From the IMG/VR virus record IMGVR_UViG_3300038345_000251, positions 183,248-247,247 of that record: 64,000 bases of DNA; one strand, 5' to 3'. The number at the start of each line of letters is the position of its first letter. The stretch's first letter is position 1. The notes under the pieces were generated by a model. That model saw only the letters and a program-made list of their open reading frames with translations. It did not search any database and was not told the DNA's origin. This DNA is from a virus. Lineage: Duplodnaviria > Heunggongvirae > Uroviricota > Caudoviricetes. Made by a program: the position numbers and the translations under genes. Of the stretch, positions 35,462-49,562 are shown piece by piece.

Positions 35462-36142
35462 TTATTCAAGTTCTTTCCATTTATCTTCACTAAAACTATT
35501 ATGAAGTTTGTTAATCCACCATTTAGTTTTAATTTTTACTTTAGGTAAACGTTGCCCTTTAAGTAAAGTACTTCGTTTAACAACAACACCTTCTTTAACA
35601 GTAGGGTATTGACAGTTTTCTTCATTCCAATCATTGTTCTGTATTGAAGAAATGAATTCTTGTGTCAATTTGCCACGATAAATGACTTCTGGCACTTCCA
35701 AACCTTCTTTGTTATAGAACAACTCATAAAAACTTTTTGGCTCAATATAGCCTTTCTTTTTGAGAAATACATCAATTAATGCTAAATGTAATTCATCACC
35801 TTCTTGATGGAATCCAGCAAATGAATTTTCTCCATACCATTCAAAAAAGAATGTTATTTCGTCAACACCATTAAATATTTGTTTTTTACCTCTATTGGTT
35901 GCAATAATATTTGTAAGAATTTCAGGTATTTTACTATTTTTAAAATATTTAACAGTATTTCCAAATTGGTCATCAGTTTCATCAACTTCACGTTTCCTAC
36001 TACCAAACCCAGTAAACTGTTTATGTTTTGGTATGTATTTAACGCAAAAATTTTGTCCGTCCAATTTGTTAAATGCCCATACTTCTTCTCCTAATAGTGT
36101 ACCATCATCTTGGATTCTATTTATACTATCGTAATGTTTCAT
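35462..36142 (-). CDS. RNA ligase (Rnl2-like adenylyltransferase domain)
   Basis: Nucleotidyltransferase motifs I KLDGQN, III FEWYG, IIIa IDVF, IV EGVVVK, V KVKIKT. Confidence 0.8.
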   Translation of the reverse strand: MKHYDSINRIQDDGTLLGEEVWAFNKLDGQNFCVKYIPKHKQFTGFGSRKREVDETDDQFGNTVKYFKNSKIPEILTNIIATNRGKKQIFNGVDEITFFFEWYGENSFAGFHQEGDELHLALIDVFLKKKGYIEPKSFYELFYNKEGLEVPEVIYRGKLTQEFISSIQNNDWNEENCQYPTVKEGVVVKRSTLLKGQRLPKVKIKTKWWINKLHNSFSEDKWKELE

Positions 36143-36144
36143 AA

Positions 36145-36330
36145 TTAAAAAATAAAATCATCAATTTTAATTTTTTCTTCAAATAAGTTTAACTCTTTTT
36201 CTATTGGAAAATCGTCATTTTTATCTAAAAACATTGATATTGAATTATTGTATGAGACATAATCACCATATTCTTTGAAAAAATCGGGTGAATTTTCAAC
36301 TAATGGTGATTCACTTGCGGTCATAAGCAA
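36145..36330 (-). CDS. Hypothetical small protein
   Basis: 61-aa ORF filling the gap in the operon. Confidence 0.35.
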   Translation of the reverse strand: MLMTASESPLVENSPDFFKEYGDYVSYNNSISMFLDKNDDFPIEKELNLFEEKIKIDDFIF

Positions 36331-37675
36331 TAGTACGTGCTTCTTTTAACAAGTTATTTACATATTCATAATCAATTTTTTCAGGAAGATTGGTTGTTTC
36401 AACTGCTTTGTCAAACTTAGCCTTAAGTTCTTCGGCTTCTTGCATAATTTCTTCGTAAGACATCACATGATGACGAATATCAAGAAGGTGTTTTACATCA
36501 TCACCAACACGTCTTACGTTAAAGCCTTTACCTTCAGCAATTTCAACACCCATTTCCATAAGTCTGATGGTATGCATAAGGTTTTTACTGTCATAGTTAT
36601 GACCTCTGTTATTTTCATAACGAACAGGGTTTCTTTCCTTCTTCCACTTTATCCAATCCTTATAATCGGTACAATGACTTTGATAAGCATCTTTATTGTA
36701 AGTCATAAAACAGATAGGCACTTCACCCTTTGGAATAGAAGAAAGTCTTACGCTGTTAGATTCACGTTCTTTACCTGTTTCGTCACCGTCTTCAACACCA
36801 TAGTTGTAAAGAGTAGTAGTACTACCATCTTCGTTAGTAACAGTTACGTTAGGATGTACAATACCCTTATAATGGAAAAATTCTTTATTTATAACACGAT
36901 TATAAGTCTTTACCACATAATCGTAATTCATAAATTTATCATATGCAACTGTACGATACCTCATATCAAAGCACCAATTCTGAAATGATTCTTCGGTTAA
37001 AAGTACTTTATCTTTTTCATCAGGATTAAGTGTCCAATCGTCTGATTTGTCGAATACTTCAAATTTGAAATATGATGCAAAGTCATAATAAACACCAAAC
37101 GTATCTTTCATATTTGGAATGTTTACAAGACCGCAATATTTCTGGTCAAGATTGTTATCTGCAAGAAAATCTTTAATTGGCTGACTACCCTGATTCTTGA
37201 AAGTATAACAGAAATCAAGAACTTCTCTTCTTTGAAAGTTTTCAGGGATGTTAATTTTCTTGTTAAGACCTTTAGCCTTTTTAATCTGGTTAAAAGAATA
37301 ACCAAGCAAAGGGTCAAGACATTGTTTAGTCAGGAACTTTTCTTTGTTATCAAGAATGTACTGAACGGCAGGATGTACTTTACCAATAACACAATCTTTA
37401 GGAATAAAGAGTGATTCAAGCGCAGTAGGGTTAGATTTCATAAGAAGTTCAACCCATCTACCAAGTTCATAATATACAGTATCATGTTTTTCATCATCAA
37501 CTTGTTCGACATAGTTACCACGTAAACCAAAAAGAGTGTCTTCTGAACAAATATATACACCACCAATATCCTGGTCTGAACCTTCGACATTAGTACCATA
37601 GGCATGACTACCACGAATATATTCATAAGCAATCATTCCGTGTTCTCTAAGATACTCAATAGTTAATTTTTTCAT
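36311..37675 (-). CDS. RlaP-like (Pol-beta superfamily) nucleotidyltransferase
   Basis: IRGSHAYGT...SDQDIGGVY, ELLMKSNPTALESLF, YDSKNLMHTIRL. Confidence 0.85.
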   Translation of the reverse strand: MKKLTIEYLREHGMIAYEYIRGSHAYGTNVEGSDQDIGGVYICSEDTLFGLRGNYVEQVDDEKHDTVYYELGRWVELLMKSNPTALESLFIPKDCVIGKVHPAVQYILDNKEKFLTKQCLDPLLGYSFNQIKKAKGLNKKINIPENFQRREVLDFCYTFKNQGSQPIKDFLADNNLDQKYCGLVNIPNMKDTFGVYYDFASYFKFEVFDKSDDWTLNPDEKDKVLLTEESFQNWCFDMRYRTVAYDKFMNYDYVVKTYNRVINKEFFHYKGIVHPNVTVTNEDGSTTTLYNYGVEDGDETGKERESNSVRLSSIPKGEVPICFMTYNKDAYQSHCTDYKDWIKWKKERNPVRYENNRGHNYDSKNLMHTIRLMEMGVEIAEGKGFNVRRVGDDVKHLLDIRHHVMSYEEIMQEAEELKAKFDKAVETTNLPEKIDYEYVNNLLKEARTIAYDRK

Positions 37676-37687
37676 ATGTTTCTTTTT

Positions 37688-38068
37688 TTAATTTTCGTAT
37701 AAAAATGGGGTTTCTCTATCAATATATTCACATCCATCTTCATATACTTTATTAGTATACATAGACATAGAACTATCAGTAAAACACGTCCACTCACCAA
37801 AATCTCTGCTATCACGTATACCATCAGCACCAATATGAAATTCCTGTACTTCAAGATTATATTTTTTACAAAACTGAATTACTTCATCAACAATTTTTTT
37901 ATGAAGTTCTCCAAATGCTTTATGAAGTTCTGGATTACGGTTTTTCTCAGATTCAAAGATAAATTCCCAGTATTCACGTGAACCAACCCAATTTTTAGGT
38001 TTATTATCGTATTTTGGGAATTGTTCAAGAATCTTCCTATCTTCTTCGTTTAAATTAATAAGTGCCAT
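37688..38068 (-). CDS. Hypothetical protein
   Basis: 126-aa ORF in the operon. Confidence 0.55.
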   Translation of the reverse strand: MALINLNEEDRKILEQFPKYDNKPKNWVGSREYWEFIFESEKNRNPELHKAFGELHKKIVDEVIQFCKKYNLEVQEFHIGADGIRDSRDFGEWTCFTDSSMSMYTNKVYEDGCEYIDRETPFLYEN

Positions 38069-38070
38069 AA

Positions 38071-38388
38071 TTATTTTTCAAATTCTTTTTCAATAACAAA
38101 TCTATAAGTATAACAATATTCTTTCATGAATTCACTTCTTACAGTTTTACCATAAATAACCTTTCCTGTAGGCCAAAATTTATAAATTTCTTCAGGAACA
38201 AATTCAACATCAAAATAAATGCCAAACTCTCTTATTATTTCACTTTTTTCAATGTATATCTGAGCATCAGAATATTCATCAACTCTTTTAATAGCATCTT
38301 CTTTATTGGTAAATAAATCAACAGAAATGGTTTCACTTCCGTTAAAATTATCTTCGTGTAATGTAAACACTAAATATGCTTTTTCCAT
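38071..38388 (-). CDS. Hypothetical protein
   Basis: 105-aa ORF right behind a promoter. Confidence 0.55.
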   Translation of the reverse strand: MEKAYLVFTLHEDNFNGSETISVDLFTNKEDAIKRVDEYSDAQIYIEKSEIIREFGIYFDVEFVPEEIYKFWPTGKVIYGKTVRSEFMKEYCYTYRFVIEKEFEK

Positions 38389-38407
38389 GTCTTTTTTAAT
38401 TACAGCG

Positions 38408-38439
38408 CAAAGATACGTAAAAAATTTTATATATCCAAA
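38408..38439 (-). promoter_or_regulatory. Bacteroidota sigma-A-type promoter
   Basis: TTTG (38436-38439)-N20-TATCTTTG (38408-38415). Confidence 0.75.
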
Positions 38440-39054
38440 TTAAATTTTAACAAAATTAAAAAAATTGCTTAATTCAATATATTCTTTATGTTTATATTGA
38501 TTATCAAATTCCTTTGCTGTTGCCCAATCCATAGATGCTTTTGCTTTTTTAATATAAAAGTCAACAATTTTATCTGGATTTTTTACATTTATAAGATAGC
38601 GGTCGTTACCAAATTGTAAATAATAATCAACATTTTTACTTATACTTGTTTCAACGACAGGATTTCCCATTTCTGCATAAAATGTCGCAGTAACAAGTTT
38701 CTTATTTGATTTTTCTAATAGTGCTTTATACATTGCACATTGAAGCACACATGCTTCAAAATACCATTGTTCAGGTGTTTCCCTTATTGATTTAACTTCA
38801 ATTATTTGATTATCACATACAATATCATTTGAAAAGTTAATCCAAATATTATCTTCATTGTAAGTGCCACGCATTTCTTCGCCAATTACATTTTCAGTAT
38901 TTAAAGCAATTTGATGTTGGAACGAAACACCTTCATTTACATTAATATTTGGTTTAGGTCTTAGTTCAGGATGTTCAGTAAACATTTTAATTTGCATACA
39001 AGACCTTGAACATAAATCTTTTGCTGAAAATGTTTTAATATTCTCCGAATTCAT
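38440..39054 (-). CDS. PD-(D/E)xK nuclease-like protein (RecB/Cas4-like fold)
   Basis: G..F.H, SNDIV...IIEVKS, LQCAMY motifs. Confidence 0.55.
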   Translation of the reverse strand: MNSENIKTFSAKDLCSRSCMQIKMFTEHPELRPKPNINVNEGVSFQHQIALNTENVIGEEMRGTYNEDNIWINFSNDIVCDNQIIEVKSIRETPEQWYFEACVLQCAMYKALLEKSNKKLVTATFYAEMGNPVVETSISKNVDYYLQFGNDRYLINVKNPDKIVDFYIKKAKASMDWATAKEFDNQYKHKEYIELSNFFNFVKI

Positions 39055-40402
39055 CTTTACACTTTTTAAGATATTTCACATAATCAAGACAATCTTCTCT
39101 TTTATGCTTACTTGGATTTACACAAACAAAATTAAATGTTTTATTTAAAATTTCTTTGATTTCTGGTGAAGGTTTAATATCAAATATTTTCATCACATCA
39201 TTTCCATCAATAGGAAGTTTATAATCATAAAACATTCTATCAATATTATCAAAGTCTTCAAAAACAGTATAATTCCATTCTGTATCATGAAAAGTATTCT
39301 TAACTCTTTTAGAACCAATAATTGTTGTCAACAAGAACGTTTGTTTATTTCCACATTGGTTCATGATTTTCCTAATTGCATAATTCTTTTCTTCTATTGC
39401 AATACAAATATCTTTACACATTGATTCCAGTTCATATGCTTTTTCAATTAAGAAAATAACATTGTTAATAACATCATTAGGATATTTTAAAACTTCAGAA
39501 AGATAATATTTTATACCTTCCTTATGAACAAAATCATACACATTATACAATAAGTTTGCAAGAATAGGAGTAATTTCAGGAATATCAAAATAATCTATAT
39601 AATCTTCATAAAACCTAATTAAACTATTAACAACTTTTACTTTTACTTCTGTTGTTGCTTTTTCAAAGTTAGGTATAATAAAACGATATGCATTAATATC
39701 CCACAATAAACAAATTGCTTTTACAGCCGATTTATTAGAAAAAGTTAACATCTTGGTAAATTCATCAGTGATTCTTTCTTTACTGATAATTTCAAGTCTG
39801 TCAACAAATTTCTTAGCACATTCAAAAGTCTCATTTTCAATGTTAAAATCAAATCTTGAAGCAAAACGAATCATTCTCAAAATCCTAAGAGGGTCTTGGT
39901 CAAATATAATTTCAGGCTCACCACAAGTACGGATAACTTTGTTTTCAATGTCTTGTGTACCTCTATCTTCAAAGTCAATAATCTCTTGATTTGTAATGTC
40001 GAAGTACATTGCATTGATGGTAAAGTCACGTCTTTCCCAATCTTGTTTAATAGTACCAAACGAAGTTTCAGGATTTCTGGTTTTTGCATCGTGATAACAT
40101 TCACTTCTTGTCTGTACTGCTTCAAGTTCAACATCAGGGAATTCTTTAAGATGGAACATAGCAGTACCAAAGTTTTCGTAAGTCACCACAGAACCTTTAG
40201 TAAATCCATTTTCTTCAAGCCATTTAGCAAAGTTAATACCACCTGAAGGTAAGTCAATCACCAAGTCAATGTCTTTGATTTCCCTGTTCATATAACAATC
40301 ACGAACACATCCACCAACGGTGAATACGTGATTTTCCCATTCAGTACCAAGTATGATATTTCTAATAGCACATACAATATCAAGATATTTTTTATCAGTC
40401 AT
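39035..40402 (-). CDS. cca: Class II tRNA nucleotidyltransferase (CCA-adding enzyme)/poly(A) polymerase family
   Basis: VGGCVRD, KDIDL, FGTA, QDWERRDFTINAM, DPLRILRMIRFASR. Confidence 0.9.
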   Translation of the reverse strand: MTDKKYLDIVCAIRNIILGTEWENHVFTVGGCVRDCYMNREIKDIDLVIDLPSGGINFAKWLEENGFTKGSVVTYENFGTAMFHLKEFPDVELEAVQTRSECYHDAKTRNPETSFGTIKQDWERRDFTINAMYFDITNQEIIDFEDRGTQDIENKVIRTCGEPEIIFDQDPLRILRMIRFASRFDFNIENETFECAKKFVDRLEIISKERITDEFTKMLTFSNKSAVKAICLLWDINAYRFIIPNFEKATTEVKVKVVNSLIRFYEDYIDYFDIPEITPILANLLYNVYDFVHKEGIKYYLSEVLKYPNDVINNVIFLIEKAYELESMCKDICIAIEEKNYAIRKIMNQCGNKQTFLLTTIIGSKRVKNTFHDTEWNYTVFEDFDNIDRMFYDYKLPIDGNDVMKIFDIKPSPEIKEILNKTFNFVCVNPSKHKREDCLDYVKYLKKCKDEFGEY

Positions 40403-40403
40403 A

Positions 40404-40832
40404 TTAATTGTTTTTGTTTTTAATTATTGTTAACGGCCTAAATACATCAAGTTTACCTGAAATATAAAAATCTTCAGGAAGTTTATACCAATTGGTAATG
40501 TTATTACTTTCTACAGGTTTTGCATCAGGTGCTGTAGCAACTGTAATATGTGAATATTTATTCTGTGTAACATAGTCTGCAACACCTAAAGCAATTGCTC
40601 TATCAGACACACCGATACTGTCAATTCTAAGAGATTGGGAATTACCAAGAAAATTGTCTAACCATTCAGCCAATTCTTGTTTTTCTTGGCTTTTGTCATT
40701 AAAAACAATCGTCATATGATGGCAAAAGATTTTCCAATTATCTGGAATCGCTTCATATTCTTTTGCTAAATTAAGCAATGCTCTTTGAGAAGTCTCTGAG
40801 AAAAATACACCGTAATAAATCCAATTTTTCAT
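40404..40832 (-). CDS. 2H phosphoesterase (cyclic phosphodiesterase-like)
   Basis: Two H-x-T motifs (HHMTI, SHITVA) and KPVESN; ATG 40832 preferred because ATG 40853 lies in a hairpin. Confidence 0.75.
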   Translation of the reverse strand: MKNWIYYGVFFSETSQRALLNLAKEYEAIPDNWKIFCHHMTIVFNDKSQEKQELAEWLDNFLGNSQSLRIDSIGVSDRAIALGVADYVTQNKYSHITVATAPDAKPVESNNITNWYKLPEDFYISGKLDVFRPLTIIKNKNN

Positions 40833-40844
40833 ATAAAAATATTT

Positions 40845-40875
40845 AAATGGCATATGTACAAAACATATGCCATTT
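40845..40875. terminator. Hairpin (terminator or processing site)
   Basis: aaatggcatatgt-acaaa-acatatgccattt perfect 13-bp stem. Confidence 0.6.
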
Positions 40876-40876
40876 G

Positions 40877-42205
40877 TTAATTTTGTACTAAAAAGAAATC
40901 ATCATATTCATTAAATTCAGGCCATTCAAGTGACATTGTACAGGCTTCAAGTTCTTGTCTTGTCATTTGTCCATCACGTCTTTCAACGTTTTTTTCAAAT
41001 TCACTTGCTTCAATGTAAACGTATGTGATATGAAGATTGTAGTTTGAGAGAAATCTTGAAATTTCTTCACGGTATTGTTTTTTCAAGTTAGTGTTATTAA
41101 CTATGATTGTTTTACCTTCAGAAGCGGCTTCAGCAAGTTCTTCTTTAATTGCTTTACTTACTTCTTCTTCATCTTTTTTACTACATACAACTTTTTCGTT
41201 TTCTTTGCAAAAACCAAGTTTTACACGCATTTCATCACGACATACAATGTAAACATTGTCTTTTTTAACCCTATACAAAGTAGGTGAAGGTTTAGGACAA
41301 TTTGATATATCACGTAAACAGATATAATCTTTTTCTTCTTTGTTTGTCATGAGTAATTGTTCATTGATAAACGTATCTTTTCCTGCACCTGGTATTCCGA
41401 TTAAGAAAATGAGTTCAAGAGGTTTTTTATAGCATTTATCAAGATAATGTTGACTACCTTTAATTCTATCATAGAAAACACTAGGTGTTAACTTAGGAAT
41501 AGAAGAATAACGTCTAATTTCTTTAGTAATACTTATAATTTCATCAAGAATTTTTTTATCTCTTGTTTTTAATATTTCATCTTTTTGAATAGAGCCTTCC
41601 AAATCACACTGTTTAAGTGCAAGTAAAAGTTCCCAAGAAGGAATATTATATGAAATACGAATTATTTCTTCAATATAGTTTTTCCTTTCATATAAATGAA
41701 GTGGAAGCATATGATATTTAACAAGAGAACAAACATCCTCTCTACGTTTTAAAGGAAAATCCCACAAAAGTTTTCGTGTAATTTTTTCACCTTTGTTTTC
41801 ATGGTCATATGAATGCCAATTACCGTCTTTACCTTTAACAGTTGTTACGCCTTTACCAATATCATGGAAAAGTGCACTTAAAAGAAGAGTTAATGCAATA
41901 TCAAAACATTCTACATCAAGAAAACCTGTTTCATAATCATCAAAGTTTCTTGCTATATTATGTATACCGTATTCTGTGTCTTTTACACTTGCATAGTTTT
42001 TAACCCATTGTACAGCATATTTACACACAAGTTTGGTATGTATCATTGCATTACCTTCACTGTGCCATTTTGGATTTTGTTCACACAGTTCCAAAATGGC
42101 AAATTCAGGTATTTTTTCTATGTTATTCCATCTAAATTCGATACTTCTGTATCTATTATTAGATGGATGTGGTTTTATTTTAAATAATTTGTCAAGTGTT
42201 ACCAT
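40877..42205 (-). CDS. HD-domain phosphohydrolase fused to P-loop polynucleotide kinase (Pnkp-like)
   Basis: QNPKWHSEG..MIHT, ALFHDIGK, HE..G, YHM, CD.EG; C-terminal LIGIPGAGKDT Walker A, CRDEMR, NNTNLKKQYR. Confidence 0.85.
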   Translation of the reverse strand: MVTLDKLFKIKPHPSNNRYRSIEFRWNNIEKIPEFAILELCEQNPKWHSEGNAMIHTKLVCKYAVQWVKNYASVKDTEYGIHNIARNFDDYETGFLDVECFDIALTLLLSALFHDIGKGVTTVKGKDGNWHSYDHENKGEKITRKLLWDFPLKRREDVCSLVKYHMLPLHLYERKNYIEEIIRISYNIPSWELLLALKQCDLEGSIQKDEILKTRDKKILDEIISITKEIRRYSSIPKLTPSVFYDRIKGSQHYLDKCYKKPLELIFLIGIPGAGKDTFINEQLLMTNKEEKDYICLRDISNCPKPSPTLYRVKKDNVYIVCRDEMRVKLGFCKENEKVVCSKKDEEEVSKAIKEELAEAASEGKTIIVNNTNLKKQYREEISRFLSNYNLHITYVYIEASEFEKNVERRDGQMTRQELEACTMSLEWPEFNEYDDFFLVQN

Positions 42206-43111: not shown

Positions 43112-43143
43112 CAAAGATAAGTCAAATTTTTTTAATTTCCAAA
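43112..43143 (-). promoter_or_regulatory. Bacteroidota sigma-A-type promoter
   Basis: TTTG (43140-43143)-N20-TATCTTTG (43112-43119). Confidence 0.75.
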
Positions 43144-44502
43144 TTTTTTTACTTTAGCAATAAGTTCGTCCCTCATTTCCTTTAGTTGTTTGTTACTAAT
43201 TCCAAATTTATTAAGATGAAAATTTCTATGATTTTCTTTAGACAATAAAACCAAGTTATCTGGTTCACTATTTCCACCATCAGCAAAAGCTTTTATATGA
43301 TGTGCGTGCATTTCAGAAAGTTCGTAATGTTTATTGTCAAGTGGGTCAATTCCTCCTTGTTTACTATACATTTCTGCTTTATCATCTGGAGTAAAAGAAC
43401 GTAAACAAAGATAGTCATGAATTTCGTTTTCATTTTCACCACGAATTACCCATTCATAAATTCCTTTTGAATCATAAAAAGTTCTTGTGGGAACAAAACT
43501 TACAAGTTGTTTACAACGTTCAGTAATATGTATTTTTTCTTCTTCAGTAAATTCTTTATTAGAATATTCAGTAAACAATTTACCCCAATCTTGTGATTGA
43601 ATTGATTGCCATGTTTTAGGTTTATAATTATGAAGGAATATATCATTTACCCAATCAATAACTTTTTTATAATGGTTAATAAGTTCATTTGCATCAGCGT
43701 CTTTTTGATGTTTAGCCATATAACAGCATATCCTATTATCTTCATGTTCTTTCCCACGAAGTTCTGGATAATCATAGTAACTTTTCCAATCTAATGCAAG
43801 TTCAAGATATTCAGCACGTTCAATACATCTATTTTTGCTATATTTAAGTGTACAATATTTATAGTCTTTATTTTTCAGTTTATTTTTACTATGACTAGTT
43901 GTAGCACTAAAGTATTTTTTTGCATCTTCAAGCCATTCACCACGATAAATGGCATTACGAATTTCTTGTGGTACAAGAATGGCATTTGGTTGGTTAATTC
44001 TACGAAACCATGCAATACGAGCATCTTCATCACCAATACAATAAGTAATATCAAGTGGATAATTAAGAAGTTTTTCTCGTTTCTCTATAGTAAGATTTTC
44101 AAAATGATGTTTATCACCATTAATCATAATTTCGAAATCACCATTTACAAAATCACAAATAGTTTTAATTCTTTGTTGTCCATCAAGTACTTCAAGAAAA
44201 CCACTAATACCTTTAGGGTCATTTATATCTACACCAAGATAAATACGATTAATGGGAAATCCACAAATAATAGAGTTAATAAGGTTTTCTCTCCAATTTT
44301 TAGTTAAATCAGCAATATATGCTCTCTGATATTTAGGACGTATGTTCAAACGTCCATTCATTGAAGAAATCCCACCAATATCATTTTCAGAATTATCAAC
44401 ATATCCTTCTATAATGTCACGAATAAGAAGTGTAGCATTGATGGGAGTCATTTTAATTGTAGAAAAGTCGGTAAAAGCTTTTGTACTGTTTTTTTTTGCC
44501 AT
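43132..44502 (-). CDS. DUF262 (ParB/GmrS-like) + HNH restriction-type endonuclease
   Basis: RPKYQR, LINSII.GFP, VLDGQQR, WFRRIN (DUF262); C-terminal HAHHIKAFADGG...NLVLL...NH (HNH). Confidence 0.85.
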   Translation of the reverse strand: MAKKNSTKAFTDFSTIKMTPINATLLIRDIIEGYVDNSENDIGGISSMNGRLNIRPKYQRAYIADLTKNWRENLINSIICGFPINRIYLGVDINDPKGISGFLEVLDGQQRIKTICDFVNGDFEIMINGDKHHFENLTIEKREKLLNYPLDITYCIGDEDARIAWFRRINQPNAILVPQEIRNAIYRGEWLEDAKKYFSATTSHSKNKLKNKDYKYCTLKYSKNRCIERAEYLELALDWKSYYDYPELRGKEHEDNRICCYMAKHQKDADANELINHYKKVIDWVNDIFLHNYKPKTWQSIQSQDWGKLFTEYSNKEFTEEEKIHITERCKQLVSFVPTRTFYDSKGIYEWVIRGENENEIHDYLCLRSFTPDDKAEMYSKQGGIDPLDNKHYELSEMHAHHIKAFADGGNSEPDNLVLLSKENHRNFHLNKFGISNKQLKEMRDELIAKVKKFGN

Positions 44503-44618
44503 AATTTTTATTAATTTAAAATTTTAAAATAAGTTAACAAATGTTTTTAAAATTAGTATTCAAATTTTATACCAAATCATAAAAAATTAAACTTTTATAA
44601 TGTTTTTTTAGTCTAAAA

Positions 44619-44638
44619 TACTCAATTCCAAATTATTG
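44619..44638 (+). repeat. Left copy of 20-bp perfect inverted repeat
   Basis: tactcaattccaaattattg; exact reverse complement at 44848-44867. Confidence 0.95.
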
Positions 44639-44763
44639 ATGCAAGAGATATTGGATTAAATGAAAAACAAAAAAATAAATCCACATATCTTATTAAAGAT
44701 GCTGATTCAGCAATTAATGGTAAACCCACTTATGCAAGAATCTGTATTAAAAAATTTTTTTAA
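44620..44763 (+). other. Silent alternative C-terminal cassette of the EcoRI-family methyltransferase
   Basis: Start-less open frame TQFQIIDARDIGLNEKQKNKSTYLIKDADSAINGKPTYARICIKKFF*. It begins with the same TQFQII as the expressed tail and ends in an ING...Y.R..IKK.F motif. Confidence 0.85.
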
Positions 44764-45781
44764 TTAGAACTCTATTATAAATTTTTTGTCCATTAATAAT
44801 TGTGAGACAAGGAAAATCACCAATGTATCTAACATTATTAGCAATTCCAATAATTTGGAATTGAGTAGGATTATATTTACCAAGGAAAGTAATAGGTACA
44901 CCCATAACACCATCATAATCCATAGGAATGTTTTCTACCCTACTTACTTCAATAGCATCATAGTTATCATACTTAGGATAATCAGTAGAATTATATTCTT
45001 TGTATAAATCCAGTATTTCACTTCTTTTTCTATGTTCAATGTTAGTAAACCAGCAAATATTTCCAAAACTTCTCCAGTTTGTTCCATTTTCATCTTTCCA
45101 ACTTCTTGTTTCTCTTGTTTCATAATTATTAGGAACAACAAAAGACATGTCACCAATACCTTTTGTACCAAGCCAAAGCTGGTTATTTTTAATATAGGGA
45201 AATATTTCCTTATAGGTAATAGCATTTTGGTTTCCAATAATAATGAATTTCTTATTGAAGTCCATTAGTTGTTTTACATATTCTCTAAACAGAGAGAAAG
45301 GAGGATTAGTGACAACTACATCTGCTTGTTTGAGATATTCAATAACATTTCTACTACGAAAATCACCACATCCATAAATACCTTTTGCCCAACATTTTTC
45401 TTTTTCTTCAAAATTGAAATCTTTATCATCTACAAGAATGGTTCTACTTGCACCACTTTCACGAATTATTCTAATATCTTCTTCACTAATAATACCATCA
45501 CCATTCATATCTTCACCTTGGTATTCAAAAGCAAAGGCTATTTTTTCATTATTTACATCATAAAAAGTACAAATCAATTTTTTGAGTTTCAAACTTTTAA
45601 ATTTAAGTATAAAATACTTAGTAAAATTACTTTCAAGAGGGTCATCACAATTACAGAAAACAACTTTATTTTCAAAATACTCTTTGTAATATTTCATTTC
45701 TTTCTCAATGTCTTCATACTGAGTGTAGAATTCATCTTTTTTTTCTGTTTTAGCATTGTGAAGGTTATTATTTTTTCCCAT
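44747..45781 (-). CDS. Adenine-specific DNA methyltransferase, EcoRI-methylase family
   Basis: LHNAK..KKDEFYT, VFCNCDDP, GDFRS, VVVTNPPFSLFREY, YPKYDNYDAIEV, MGVPITFL; likely ATG 45781. Confidence 0.9.
   Translation of the reverse strand: MGKNNNLHNAKTEKKDEFYTQYEDIEKEMKYYKEYFENKVVFCNCDDPLESNFTKYFILKFKSLKLKKLICTFYDVNNEKIAFAFEYQGEDMNGDGIISEEDIRIIRESGASRTILVDDKDFNFEEKEKCWAKGIYGCGDFRSRNVIEYLKQADVVVTNPPFSLFREYVKQLMDFNKKFIIIGNQNAITYKEIFPYIKNNQLWLGTKGIGDMSFVVPNNYETRETRSWKDENGTNWRSFGNICWFTNIEHRKRSEILDLYKEYNSTDYPKYDNYDAIEVSRVENIPMDYDGVMGVPITFLGKYNPTQFQIIGIANNVRYIGDFPCLTIINGQKIYNRVLIKKIF
44848..44867 (-). repeat. Right copy of 20-bp perfect inverted repeat (inside MTase CDS)
   Basis: caataatttggaattgagta on +; encodes (P)TQFQII(G) on the minus strand. 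Confidence 0.95.
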
Positions 45782-47284: not shown

Positions 47285-48895
47285 TTAAGCATTTTCTTCA
47301 TCAAAACCTGCTAACTCTTCAATATCAACTTCGCCAGAATCATGCTGAAGTGCTTCATACATATAGTGACGGTTACACTTTACTTTGAAAGCTTCTGCAC
47401 GAGGGTCATCATCAATTCTAATAACAACACCTTCGTGTGGTGCTCTCATGTTTTCCCACTTCTCATATTCTTTCTTAAGTTTAGCGATAGTTTTCTTTGC
47501 CTGTTTTTCAGAAACAGCCTTTTCATACAATTCCTTTGCAGCAACTGCTTCAGGCTCATACAAATGGCAAAGATGTTCAGTTTCTTCCATGTAGAAACGT
47601 TCCTTATCATTCTTCAATGCCTGAAGAAAGTTTTCGTGCCAATGCATTGTTTCATCAAGTTCAGGGAAAATATCACCGCAACGACCATGATAAAGAATTT
47701 CAAGGAAAAGAACTTTATCAGCAAGTTCTGGATGTTCTTCAACAAGTTTATGTGTCCAAGCATCAACTTGTTCAACATTCCATTCAGTAGTATTACCAAG
47801 TTCATCAGTTACCGTAATACGATAAGGCATAAACTTCCACTGTCCAACCTTACATCCATAATCGTGAACTTTCTGAATCATTTTGTCAGAACCTTCAAGA
47901 TAACCAGCAACTTCACCATAAACAGTCATACCTTTTTCAAGATAAGGTGCAAAATCACGGTTTACACAACCCCAAATGTCAACACCGTAAAAATCATGCC
48001 CTTTACCTGGGTTCACATAACGGTTTTTAATTACTGAACGAGAAGAATAAACATTACCATATTCAGTAAGTTGAACTTTTGCACCAAAGAATTTCTTGAT
48101 TTTCTCCCAAACAGAAAGTTTCCTATTAACAAGAATATTGGCAAGAATGATAGAAGTACCGTGTACCTTAGTGGTAATAGTTACCATAGAATCAGGGTTA
48201 AGGAACTTTGCAATGTTAGCACCTTCAAGTTTAACAGTATCATAATGGAAAGCAAACTGATTTTCCACAAGTCTGTCAAATTTCTTGACCTTCTTCATTC
48301 TTTTATTGAAATGTTTCTGAGAATTTCTTTCAGGATGTTCCTTTACAGGAGGAATATATTTCCAACAAAATTCTTCATCACCAATATGGTTAAACTGAGT
48401 ATCAACAAGTGATTCCCAATCAATATTTGCAAGGTCTTTATCGTAATTTACCAAAGACTTAACACTTGCAACAAAACCATTGGATGCAATACCTTTAAGG
48501 GTAACGATTCTAACACGATTTCTCTTGTTAAAATAGCCAACCATAGATTTTGCTTCTTTATAAAGTTCGTCTGCTTTTTCAGCATTACCTGCTGCTTTTG
48601 CTTCCTCAACTTTATTAAGGAGTTCACCAACCTCAACGTGGTTAGCGTTACGCTCCCACTCAGAAATTTCGTAAAGGTTGTTAGCAGCAAGGAAACCATC
48701 ACAGATTGCAGTTTCTACAGGAACGTAAACCACAATGTCACCTTCCTTGGTATCTTTACCAACAACAATGTCATAACCATTTACAATAGTTCTACAAATT
48801 TTGTCAGCACCTTCAATTGGGTGTATTTCTCCAACCCTACAAATGGTTGCCACATAATTTGGATTTGAATTTTCTTTGATATAGAATTTTTTCAT
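47285..48895 (-). CDS. RNA ligase, DRB0094-like (N-terminal OB/tRNA-binding module + adenylyltransferase)
   Basis: ATICRVGEIHPIEGADKI...GDIVVYVP N-terminus; TTKVHGTS (motif I), YSSRS, VYGEV, EGVVIR, AFKVK; likely ATG 48895. Confidence 0.8.
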   Translation of the reverse strand: MKKFYIKENSNPNYVATICRVGEIHPIEGADKICRTIVNGYDIVVGKDTKEGDIVVYVPVETAICDGFLAANNLYEISEWERNANHVEVGELLNKVEEAKAAGNAEKADELYKEAKSMVGYFNKRNRVRIVTLKGIASNGFVASVKSLVNYDKDLANIDWESLVDTQFNHIGDEEFCWKYIPPVKEHPERNSQKHFNKRMKKVKKFDRLVENQFAFHYDTVKLEGANIAKFLNPDSMVTITTKVHGTSIILANILVNRKLSVWEKIKKFFGAKVQLTEYGNVYSSRSVIKNRYVNPGKGHDFYGVDIWGCVNRDFAPYLEKGMTVYGEVAGYLEGSDKMIQKVHDYGCKVGQWKFMPYRITVTDELGNTTEWNVEQVDAWTHKLVEEHPELADKVLFLEILYHGRCGDIFPELDETMHWHENFLQALKNDKERFYMEETEHLCHLYEPEAVAAKELYEKAVSEKQAKKTIAKLKKEYEKWENMRAPHEGVVIRIDDDPRAEAFKVKCNRHYMYEALQHDSGEVDIEELAGFDEENA

Positions 48896-48914
48896 AATAT
48901 TATTATGTTTTTGT

Positions 48915-49562
48915 TTATTTATTAACAATTGGTATGTCATTTCTGTCATCGTGATAACCTTTATCACCAACTAATGTTGCAAGTGACCCATGAAGATATG
49001 GAAACAATTCAGGATGGAAAAGAAGTGTTCTTGCAAACATTATAGATGCAGAAGCAGAATTACCTGAATGACCATCGTTCCATTCGTCATAACCATCTTC
49101 TATAATGTTTTTTGTAAACTCATAATTAGTATAATAACTTCCATCATCTTTTTGAGCATATTTGTCCCAAGTTTCTATTGTTGTTTGGTCAAGTTCTTCA
49201 CTTTTTTTTACAATAAAATTAGCAAGACTTTCTGCTTGATTAATCACACTCATTTCATAGAGATACAATGGTGACGGTGAATCTGGTTCTTCTTTAAGAA
49301 GTTGATTAAGTTCATCAATCTTTAGTTCAAACTCACAGGTTACGTCATTATAACTTTCCCATCTTTTTTCCTTAAAGTCTTCAAAATTGGCAAACCCATG
49401 TTTTTGTGCTGTTTCATCAGATTTAGATTTCCACACTTTCATTTTAGTGTCATATTCTTCTTTCATTACTTTAGGCTCATCTTCAAAACTATAACCAAGG
49501 TCTCTCAGCCAAAAATTATTGAATCGTTCAATTCTTTTTTCTATAAGTTCTTTAAAGTTCAT
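48915..49562 (-). CDS. Hypothetical protein
   Basis: 215 aa with a DGHSGNS motif. Confidence 0.6.
   Translation of the reverse strand: MNFKELIEKRIERFNNFWLRDLGYSFEDEPKVMKEEYDTKMKVWKSKSDETAQKHGFANFEDFKEKRWESYNDVTCEFELKIDELNQLLKEEPDSPSPLYLYEMSVINQAESLANFIVKKSEELDQTTIETWDKYAQKDDGSYYTNYEFTKNIIEDGYDEWNDGHSGNSASASIMFARTLLFHPELFPYLHGSLATLVGDKGYHDDRNDIPIVNK

Follow-up and report, generated by a model that had tools for sequence, protein, structure and literature searches.

In the window analyzed here (the whole stretch of 64,000 nucleotides, positions 183,248 to 247,247 of virus record IMGVR_UViG_3300038345_000251), the gene for a DNA methylase ends inside a 249-bp segment that is bounded by a 20-bp inverted repeat and that carries a second possible gene end on its other strand. 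The locus raises the question of whether this segment inverts in nature and, if it does, what the inversion changes and what carries it out. The first part can be answered by observation, as both orientations occur in natural samples. For the whole, the reading that we prefer, at a probability of roughly 0.55, is that the segment holds two interchangeable methylase ends found in nature in both orientations, that a flip likely changes the methylated sequence, and that flipping likely proceeds by homology-dependent recombination and not by a dedicated invertase.

A methylase gene with two alternative ends

The initial annotation assigned the methylase to the EcoRI family, and the assignment holds: the protein matches Pfam PF13651 at E = 9.7e-122 (407 bits against a curated cut-off of 26.4), and its NPPF motif occupies residues 159–162, where N159-P160-P161-F162 is invariant across 65 homologues. 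The repeat, described as perfect, has arms that are complementary at 20 of 20 positions. Across 200 simulated sequences of 10 kb, inverted repeats within 1 kb reached 15 bp at most, and the arm sequence has no further copy at three or fewer mismatches in the 392,823-bp virus record.

One arm of the repeat thus lies within the gene, and a silent partial gene stands in register with it, the left arm opening a start-less plus-strand frame of 47 codons. The expressed minus-strand tail and the start-less plus-strand tail both read as the annotation had given them, and the near-palindromic 17-bp overlap at their ends is present (Table 1). Inverting the segment in silico yields an open methylase frame that ends in tail B, so that the predicted second full-length methylase is indeed encoded. 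The tails had further been said to share their ends and to differ in the middle. This part stood and could be refined, in that the variable part is the loop between the QFxI motif and the terminal Y.R, with both flanks conserved.

Table 1. Features of the methylase locus in window coordinates (X, metagenome runs; P and L, homologues and loci used for comparison)
Feature	Position	Strand	Evidence
DUF262 (GmrSD_N)-HNH nuclease, partner gene of the methylase	43132-44502	-	Pfam PF03235 and PF01844; PADLOC REase_II, E 1.2e-54
Bipartite element TTAAACYWT-N15-GTCTAA, promoter-like	44587-44616	+	Sequence conservation, just outside the outer arm
Outer arm of the inverted repeat	44619-44638		Sequence; contig breaks, 40-bp connectors and joints map there
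Invertible segment, 249 bp	44619-44867		Separate 249-bp contig in X3 and X4; wholly flipped within a 430-bp contig of X5
Tail B, start-less spare tail, DAR...LIKDAD-type loop	44620-44763	+	Near-identical tail in P0003 and L102
Tail-to-tail overlap, 17 near-palindromic bases	44747-44763		Each stop codon is antisense to the last codons of the other tail
Tail A, in-gene tail in the window's orientation, ANNVR-type loop	44747-44866	-	Loop type ends many full-length homologues
EcoRI-family adenine DNA methyltransferase, 344 aa, ATG at 45781	44747-45781	-	Pfam PF13651; PADLOC MTase_II
In-gene arm of the 20-bp inverted repeat, codes for TQFQII	44848-44867		Sequence; flipped joints of X5, X6 and X7 map there

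Both orientations occur in gut metagenomes

Eight metagenome runs were compared across the cassette, all of them as assembled contigs of mixed populations. Six runs from two independent studies (X2 to X7) were informative, and X1 and X9 held no informative pieces; the labeled ones among the runs containing this stretch are metagenomes from bovine and goat gut. The fullest picture comes from X4, which contains all four junctions at a reference-to-flipped ratio of about 40:60. There, the left flank has a depth of 19.1, the 249-bp cassette of 16, and the right flank of 17.2; two 40-bp connectors in the window's orientation have depths of 8.6 and 5.0, and two 10-base loose ends that correspond to the flipped junctions have depths of about 11.6 and 9.1 (back-calculated from depth bins). 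In X5 the entire flipped cassette lies within one 430-bp contig, X6 contains both flipped joints, and X7 contains one; these three runs show flipped junctions only, at a low depth of 3–5. Contigs break exactly at the arms in X3, and in X2 a break at the arms is accompanied by a flipped loose end.

Two features of these data bear on their interpretation. The connectors consist of 10 + 20 + 10 bases, so the assembly word was longer than the arm, and every junction therefore needs real reads. At position 45014, the window, which is in the reference orientation, has T, and X4 has C with both orientations, and thus orientation is not tied to one haplotype. The annotation had itself allowed that deep data might contain a single orientation or that the repeat might be an artefact of assembly. 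Flipped junctions in X4, X5, X6, and X7 speak against the former, reciprocal junctions and connectors longer than the arm speak against the latter, and the claim of inversion survives both. The two orientations coexist in one population (that of X4, a metagenome sample and not a clone), and the segment very probably flips in natural populations.

The design recurs in related viruses

Related loci were gathered with the methylase protein and its alignment. Of 97 viral loci, a few of them fetched twice, 6 have at the QF arm an inverted repeat that measures 13 bp or more; none of 78 genome loci and none of 69 metagenome loci has one. All six have a spare tail on the opposite strand, arms of 17–21 bp, spans of 208–359 bp, and overlapping tail ends, the overlap measuring 4–20 bp in each of seven cassettes examined. 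A pattern scan of viral contigs for QFxI codons together with a 30-bp element that flanks the outer arm (see below) added two more. The total is nine cassettes in eight virus records, with none in the 147 bacterial or metagenome loci, and the arms are perfectly identical within each of the nine. The annotation's proposal that homologous methylase loci be searched for extra cassettes was thus fruitful, as the eight beyond the window have an identical design and come from related virus records. A quick tree of 101 cores, built without L086 and L279, places all seven cassette methylases included in a 29-row set (support 98) that contains no bacterial genome locus.

Individual records have their own peculiarities. 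One phage, on a 222-kb contig, carries two methylases about 11 kb apart (L056/L280 and L278), each with its own invertible two-tail cassette and with nearly identical arms, as well as a third, tail-less methylase elsewhere (L317). In L279 (1974–2943 after reversal) the methylase gene is split by a frameshift, with cassette and element intact. The L086/L310 record reads through TGA, giving an open 347-aa methylase under table 4, which the other cassette records do not. Many close homologues (P0076, P0077, P0097, P0098, P0104, and others) end in LSSAN, LS, or VS; such ends match those of overlapping cassette tails, hinting that many more cassettes may exist.

The variable loop as a candidate specificity determinant

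If the segment flips, what does the exchange of ends alter? The methylase core (residues 17–250) has a class I methylase (Rossmann) fold resembling folds of the TaqI/MmeI/KsgA type, with TaqI and MmeI among its fold neighbors at Z scores of 9.0–9.1 (for MmeI, Z 9.1, rmsd 4.2, 201 aligned). For the PF13651 family, neither sequence search nor Foldseek at E ≤ 0.001 returned a solved structure. Residues 250–344 are modeled with a pLDDT of 87.5 and have no clear solved match (best Z 3.0 among 48,161 chains); in the model, strands 308–314 and 337–342 surround a loop of lower confidence. Homologues keep the QFxI motif and the terminal Y.R strand, and the intervening loop varies. In methylases of the gamma class the recognition domain follows the catalytic core on its C-terminal side, and the variable loop of this methylase likewise lies C-terminal of the core.

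Both loops of the window terminate full-length methylases elsewhere, bacterial genome loci included; a tail nearly identical to tail B ends both the best full-length homologue (P0003) and a genome locus (L102). Loops were typed by alignment, regex typing having left 100 of 158 typed loci as "other," and in this comparison loops at least 70% identical occur on cores that are 46–50% identical. An example is the loop that phage cassette L027 shares with the Bacteroidales loci L124 and L101. The same loop may also be in use in one phage and in reserve in another, as with the LDRYVE loop, which is in-gene in L024 and L027 and spare in L048 and L056.

Inversion may not be the only means of exchanging this loop. 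A simple repeat lies behind the QF motif in 16 loci, 14 of which have tail motifs in two to three frames, and these repeat-bearing loci look like a slippage-driven second way to switch the same loop. In eight PF13651 loci (L106, L130, L169, L189, L009, L073, L255, and L134), GA, AGAAG, poly-G, or CAGA repeats about 75–110 bases behind QF precede tail motifs that occupy each of the three reading frames. In yet other loci (L003/L032, L011, L118, L120, L129, and L252), additional tail modules follow the methylase as arrays on the same strand or as tandems in frame.

EcoRI-like methylases are known to differ in target, which is RTCAGG for M.BanLI (PMC3990576) and CTAT for MPN198 (PMC3536716). Together with the sharing of loop types across distant cores, the exchange of loops between in-gene and spare positions, and the second switching device, these differing targets make it likely that the loop sets the target. 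From such comparisons we consider the 22–30-residue loop between the two constant strands to be quite probably the specificity determinant.

The partner nuclease

The locus was annotated as one of restriction and modification, and the MTase_II gene of family PF13651 does adjoin a REase_II gene of the DUF262-HNH type; both a methylase and a nuclease gene are present in 164 of 260 loci examined. This pairing poses a difficulty for any switch of specificity, since a switchable methylase next to a nuclease of fixed specificity would leave the phage unprotected. One way out is for the nuclease to follow the specificity of the methylase, so that a single flip would retarget both. On sequence grounds we lean slightly toward this possibility.

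The covariation of the two genes can be read in several ways. Among 141 loci, 25 of 33 pairs with nucleases 85–95% identical have unrelated loops. Loop similarity does rise somewhat with nuclease identity, loops being related in the other 8 of the 33 pairs and in about 2% of pairs below 65% identity. Unrelated loops with near-identical nucleases fit a split Type IIL-like enzyme, a loop without a role in specificity, or a weakly active nuclease. A predicted methylase–nuclease complex scored 0.00, which counts neither way. The nuclease of the window is itself unusual, with 456 aa against a family norm of about 365 aa and without several cysteines that are nearly invariant in its homologues.

A conserved element beside the outer arm

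Just outside the outer arm is a 30-bp bipartite element that has a single exact copy in the phage genome. The window has it in this place, as do four of the six cassette loci; it is exact in L019, L024, L056, and L086 and has no match within one mismatch in the other, non-cassette loci compared. The scan of viral contigs for the element plus QFxI codons returned six stretches, all of them methylase cassettes and two of them new; a looser pattern returned nine, the additions being three non-methylase stretches only. This degree of conservation suggests that some protein may bind beside the arm. From its shape, which resembles that of sigmaE promoters, the element may be an ECF-sigma promoter pointing into the spare tail. 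A sigma-70 scan gave nine sites against 10.9 expected, with none at the element. Just downstream of the element, L024, L048, L056, and L278 have TGGCA...TTGC motifs that are presumably sigma-54-like. A near-palindromic −30/−10 promoter motif linked to antisense RNAs has been described in Bacteroides thetaiotaomicron (PMC7366714).

The element was also considered as a marker of host invertons and was rejected in this role. In one bacterial order it occurs in 14 of 401 genomes, fewer than the reversed control, with 11 of the 14 copies intergenic and the longest adjacent inverted repeat 11 bp. One of these bacterial copies precedes an ECF sigma gene by 86 bp.

How the segment may be flipped

From the absence of a recombinase in the window, the initial annotation concluded that one must be encoded elsewhere or by the host. 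The absence is confirmed and extends to the whole genome and to most relatives, but the conclusion is too narrow, as an invertase encoded in trans is only one of two mechanisms. The phage's own genome has no match to PF00589, PF00239, PF07508, PF01548, or PF01797 (tyrosine, serine, large-serine, DEDD, and Y1 recombinases), and Pfam scans of its 245 ORFs of 140–800 aa, which exclude shorter and longer ORFs and six that cross stretch ends, detected no recombinase. Among related records, several of them fragments, PF00589 is absent from seven of seven, and PF00239 is found in one of five, beside a TnpB-like gene far from the cassette. Four TnpB-like genes (G000, L261, L272, and L276) were noted along the way, and no Y1 or serine transposase was found in the genome.

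The arms themselves are more informative. Between cassettes they differ at 1–6 of 14 core bases. Because arms are identical within a cassette and differ between phages, it is identity and not sequence that appears to matter, and this favors homology-driven flipping. In such a mechanism, homology-dependent recombination between the 20-bp arms would flip the segment with no dedicated invertase. The phage encodes RecA-like, gp32, and Rad50-hook proteins, and, on balance, we favor by a little the possibility that T4-type recombination proteins (RecA/UvsX-like, gp32, and Rad50-like) or template switching carry out the inversion, possibly with the aid of transcription that starts at the flanking element. 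An arm of 20 bp is short for RecA-type recombination. As to purpose, the switch could serve as bet-hedging against hosts with different alleles of the same restriction-modification family.

Alternative explanations

The most serious competitor to homology-dependent flipping retains the switch of specificity and has the segment flipped in trans by a site-specific recombinase for which the 30-bp element would serve as an accessory site. The enzyme could be an invertase of the Bacteroidales host or a phage protein that went unrecognised. An efficient site-specific enzyme would suit the high flipped fraction, the clean reciprocal junctions, and the 40:60 mix as well as homologous recombination does. 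The arms also have a loosely palindromic core in common, but this core is simply the outcome of the QF(E/Q)I codons, and arm sequences vary from phage to phage. Similarly, the element recurs next to the outer arm with its spacing exactly conserved, but its distance to the QF codons varies from 5 to 11 bp and the L027 cassette lacks it entirely. Candidate enzymes could be found in the host, as B. thetaiotaomicron encodes 56 invertases (PMC10028968), or in the phage, where a divergent enzyme is possible among ORFs that are unannotated or, at less than 140 or more than 800 aa, outside the scans. Against a host system, however, the element is rarer in bacterial genomes than its reversed control and has no long inverted repeat beside it, and the copy upstream of the ECF sigma gene fits a promoter. 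Recombination in trans therefore seems unlikely to us, without being far-fetched.

Other explanations question how often the segment flips, what the flip does, or whether it occurs at all. Strains fixed in either orientation could simply co-occur, inversion being rare or historical and the spare tail a reservoir on evolutionary time scales instead of a fast switch. The runs with flipped junctions only, all at a depth of 3–5, agree with this, and all of the data are contigs from mixed populations and not clonal reads. But in X2, X3, and X4, which belong to one study, the orientations are mixed or the contigs break at the arms. Moreover, either base at 45014 is found with the reference orientation, the flipped form is also present in X4, and the arms stay perfectly identical in nine of nine cassettes; we regard this explanation as improbable. 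Alternatively, the flip may be real and the tail may alter activity level, partner binding, or stability, and not the target sequence. An unchanged target would also explain why the nuclease does not covary tightly with the loop, and the C-terminal domain has no structural match to a known recognition domain. It would leave unexplained, however, why loops fall into many discrete types, with each type conserved on distantly related cores, why inversion and simple repeats, two separate switching devices, converge on the loop, and why the loop occupies the place of the recognition domain in gamma-class methylases. This makes a non-target role a long shot. As for an assembly or library artefact, inverted repeats can generally give fold-back chimeras, and contigs were compared here instead of raw reads; with connectors that need real reads, junctions that are reciprocal at 40:60, runs that hold the flipped form only, and two tails that are both intact natural alleles, this possibility is hardly credible. 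Thus, homology-dependent inversion that exchanges the specificity loop remains our preferred reading.

Relation to known systems

Programmed inversions of restriction-modification genes are known; new is the variant on the PF13651 tail in giant phages, with evidence for both orientations. In Mu (Gin), P1 (Cin), and the R64 shufflon, the recombinase is encoded next to the segment, and adsorption proteins are varied. The phage cassette has in common with these a constant N terminus and invertible alternative C termini in a mobile element, but it varies DNA marking instead. It works like a two-state shufflon and is not one in the strict sense, because no cognate recombinase of the families searched was found in the phage genome.

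Closer in function are bacterial systems, where it is established that programmed inversions rearrange Type I hsdS as well as DISARM-, Cj0031-, and PglX-like genes of Type II (Milman et al. 2023, PMC9881135). The DISARM DrmMI-like, Cj0031-like, and BREX PglX inversions described there resemble the phage cassette in having an arm within the coding sequence, an in-register silent partial gene, exchange of the methylase C terminus, and coexisting variants. They concern large enzymes in bacterial genomes, whereas here a unit of about 35–45 residues with overlapping tails is swapped in a giant T4-like phage in which no invertase was recognised; the main text and one supplement of that report make no mention of EcoRI, DUF262, or HNH. 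With the Type I hsdS invertons of Streptococcus pneumoniae (Huang et al. 2020, PMC7672463), the cassette shares the exchange by inversion of the specificity part of a restriction-modification system, but the phage locus has no HsdR, HsdM, or HsdS genes and no invertase, and a loop is exchanged instead of a whole recognition domain.

For the methylase–nuclease pair, the nearest parallel is BanLI of Bifidobacterium animalis subsp. lactis, likened here by description and not by sequence, which also pairs an M.EcoRI-alignable methylase with a putative nuclease (43.5 kDa). BanLI has an asymmetric site, RTCAGG, and restricts weakly, with an efficiency of plaquing of about 0.1; the account of it that we consulted describes no switchable tail (PMC3990576). 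MmeI-family Type IIL enzymes (PMC2731913) would be comparable in operation, provided that a single recognition module serves both methylation and cutting. MmeI, however, is one polypeptide with its own nuclease domain, whereas the methylase and the DUF262-HNH nuclease are two separate ORFs. Further literature for comparison is given in PMC7248222, PMC7826278, PMC12596196, PMC12707154, and PMC11868660. Outside subscription journals and REBASE, the literature yielded no account of a tail that is invertible or switched by repeats, either in the PF13651 family or in a phage methylase.

Inversions have thus been known to switch restriction-modification specificity in bacteria and host range in phages, and here a restriction-modification switch encoded by a phage is seen in both states in natural samples. 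The locus amounts to a natural swap experiment, in that alleles differing only in their last 33–41 residues would locate specificity within a very widespread methylase family, and the same pair would test whether the methylase guides the DUF262-HNH nuclease. Methylase engineering could also profit from short loop types that retarget one core. Should flipping proceed without an invertase, arms of 17–21 bp would suffice for high-frequency switching in T4-like giant phages.

A more ambitious picture, which we hold only tentatively and think doubtful as a whole, is that of a giant gut phage clade with an invertase-free epigenetic switch, in which a host-read promoter next to the outer arm opens the DNA, phage recombination flips the 250-bp two-tail cassette, and a 25-residue loop retargets the methylase and a subordinate nuclease. 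If it were true, PF13651/DUF262-HNH pairs would form a split restriction-modification class with plug-in specificity and a loop library traded between phages and hosts; phages would switch the loop by inversion, and bacteria by slippage at repeats.

The carrier phage

The carrier is a T4-like giant phage of 392,823 bp, for which Pfam matches among the 245 ORFs include gp23 capsid, T4 portal, gp19 tail tube, gp32, and RecA-like proteins, together with a Rad50 zinc hook and two sigma factors. Its host may belong to the Bacteroidota, to judge by BACON domains and by homologues named as Prevotellaceae. On either side of the methylase locus (window positions 35462–42205 and 47285–48970), the phage also carries an RNA-repair cluster that comprises an RNA ligase, an RlaP-like polymerase, a poly(A) polymerase/CCA-type enzyme, a phosphodiesterase, and an HD-kinase.
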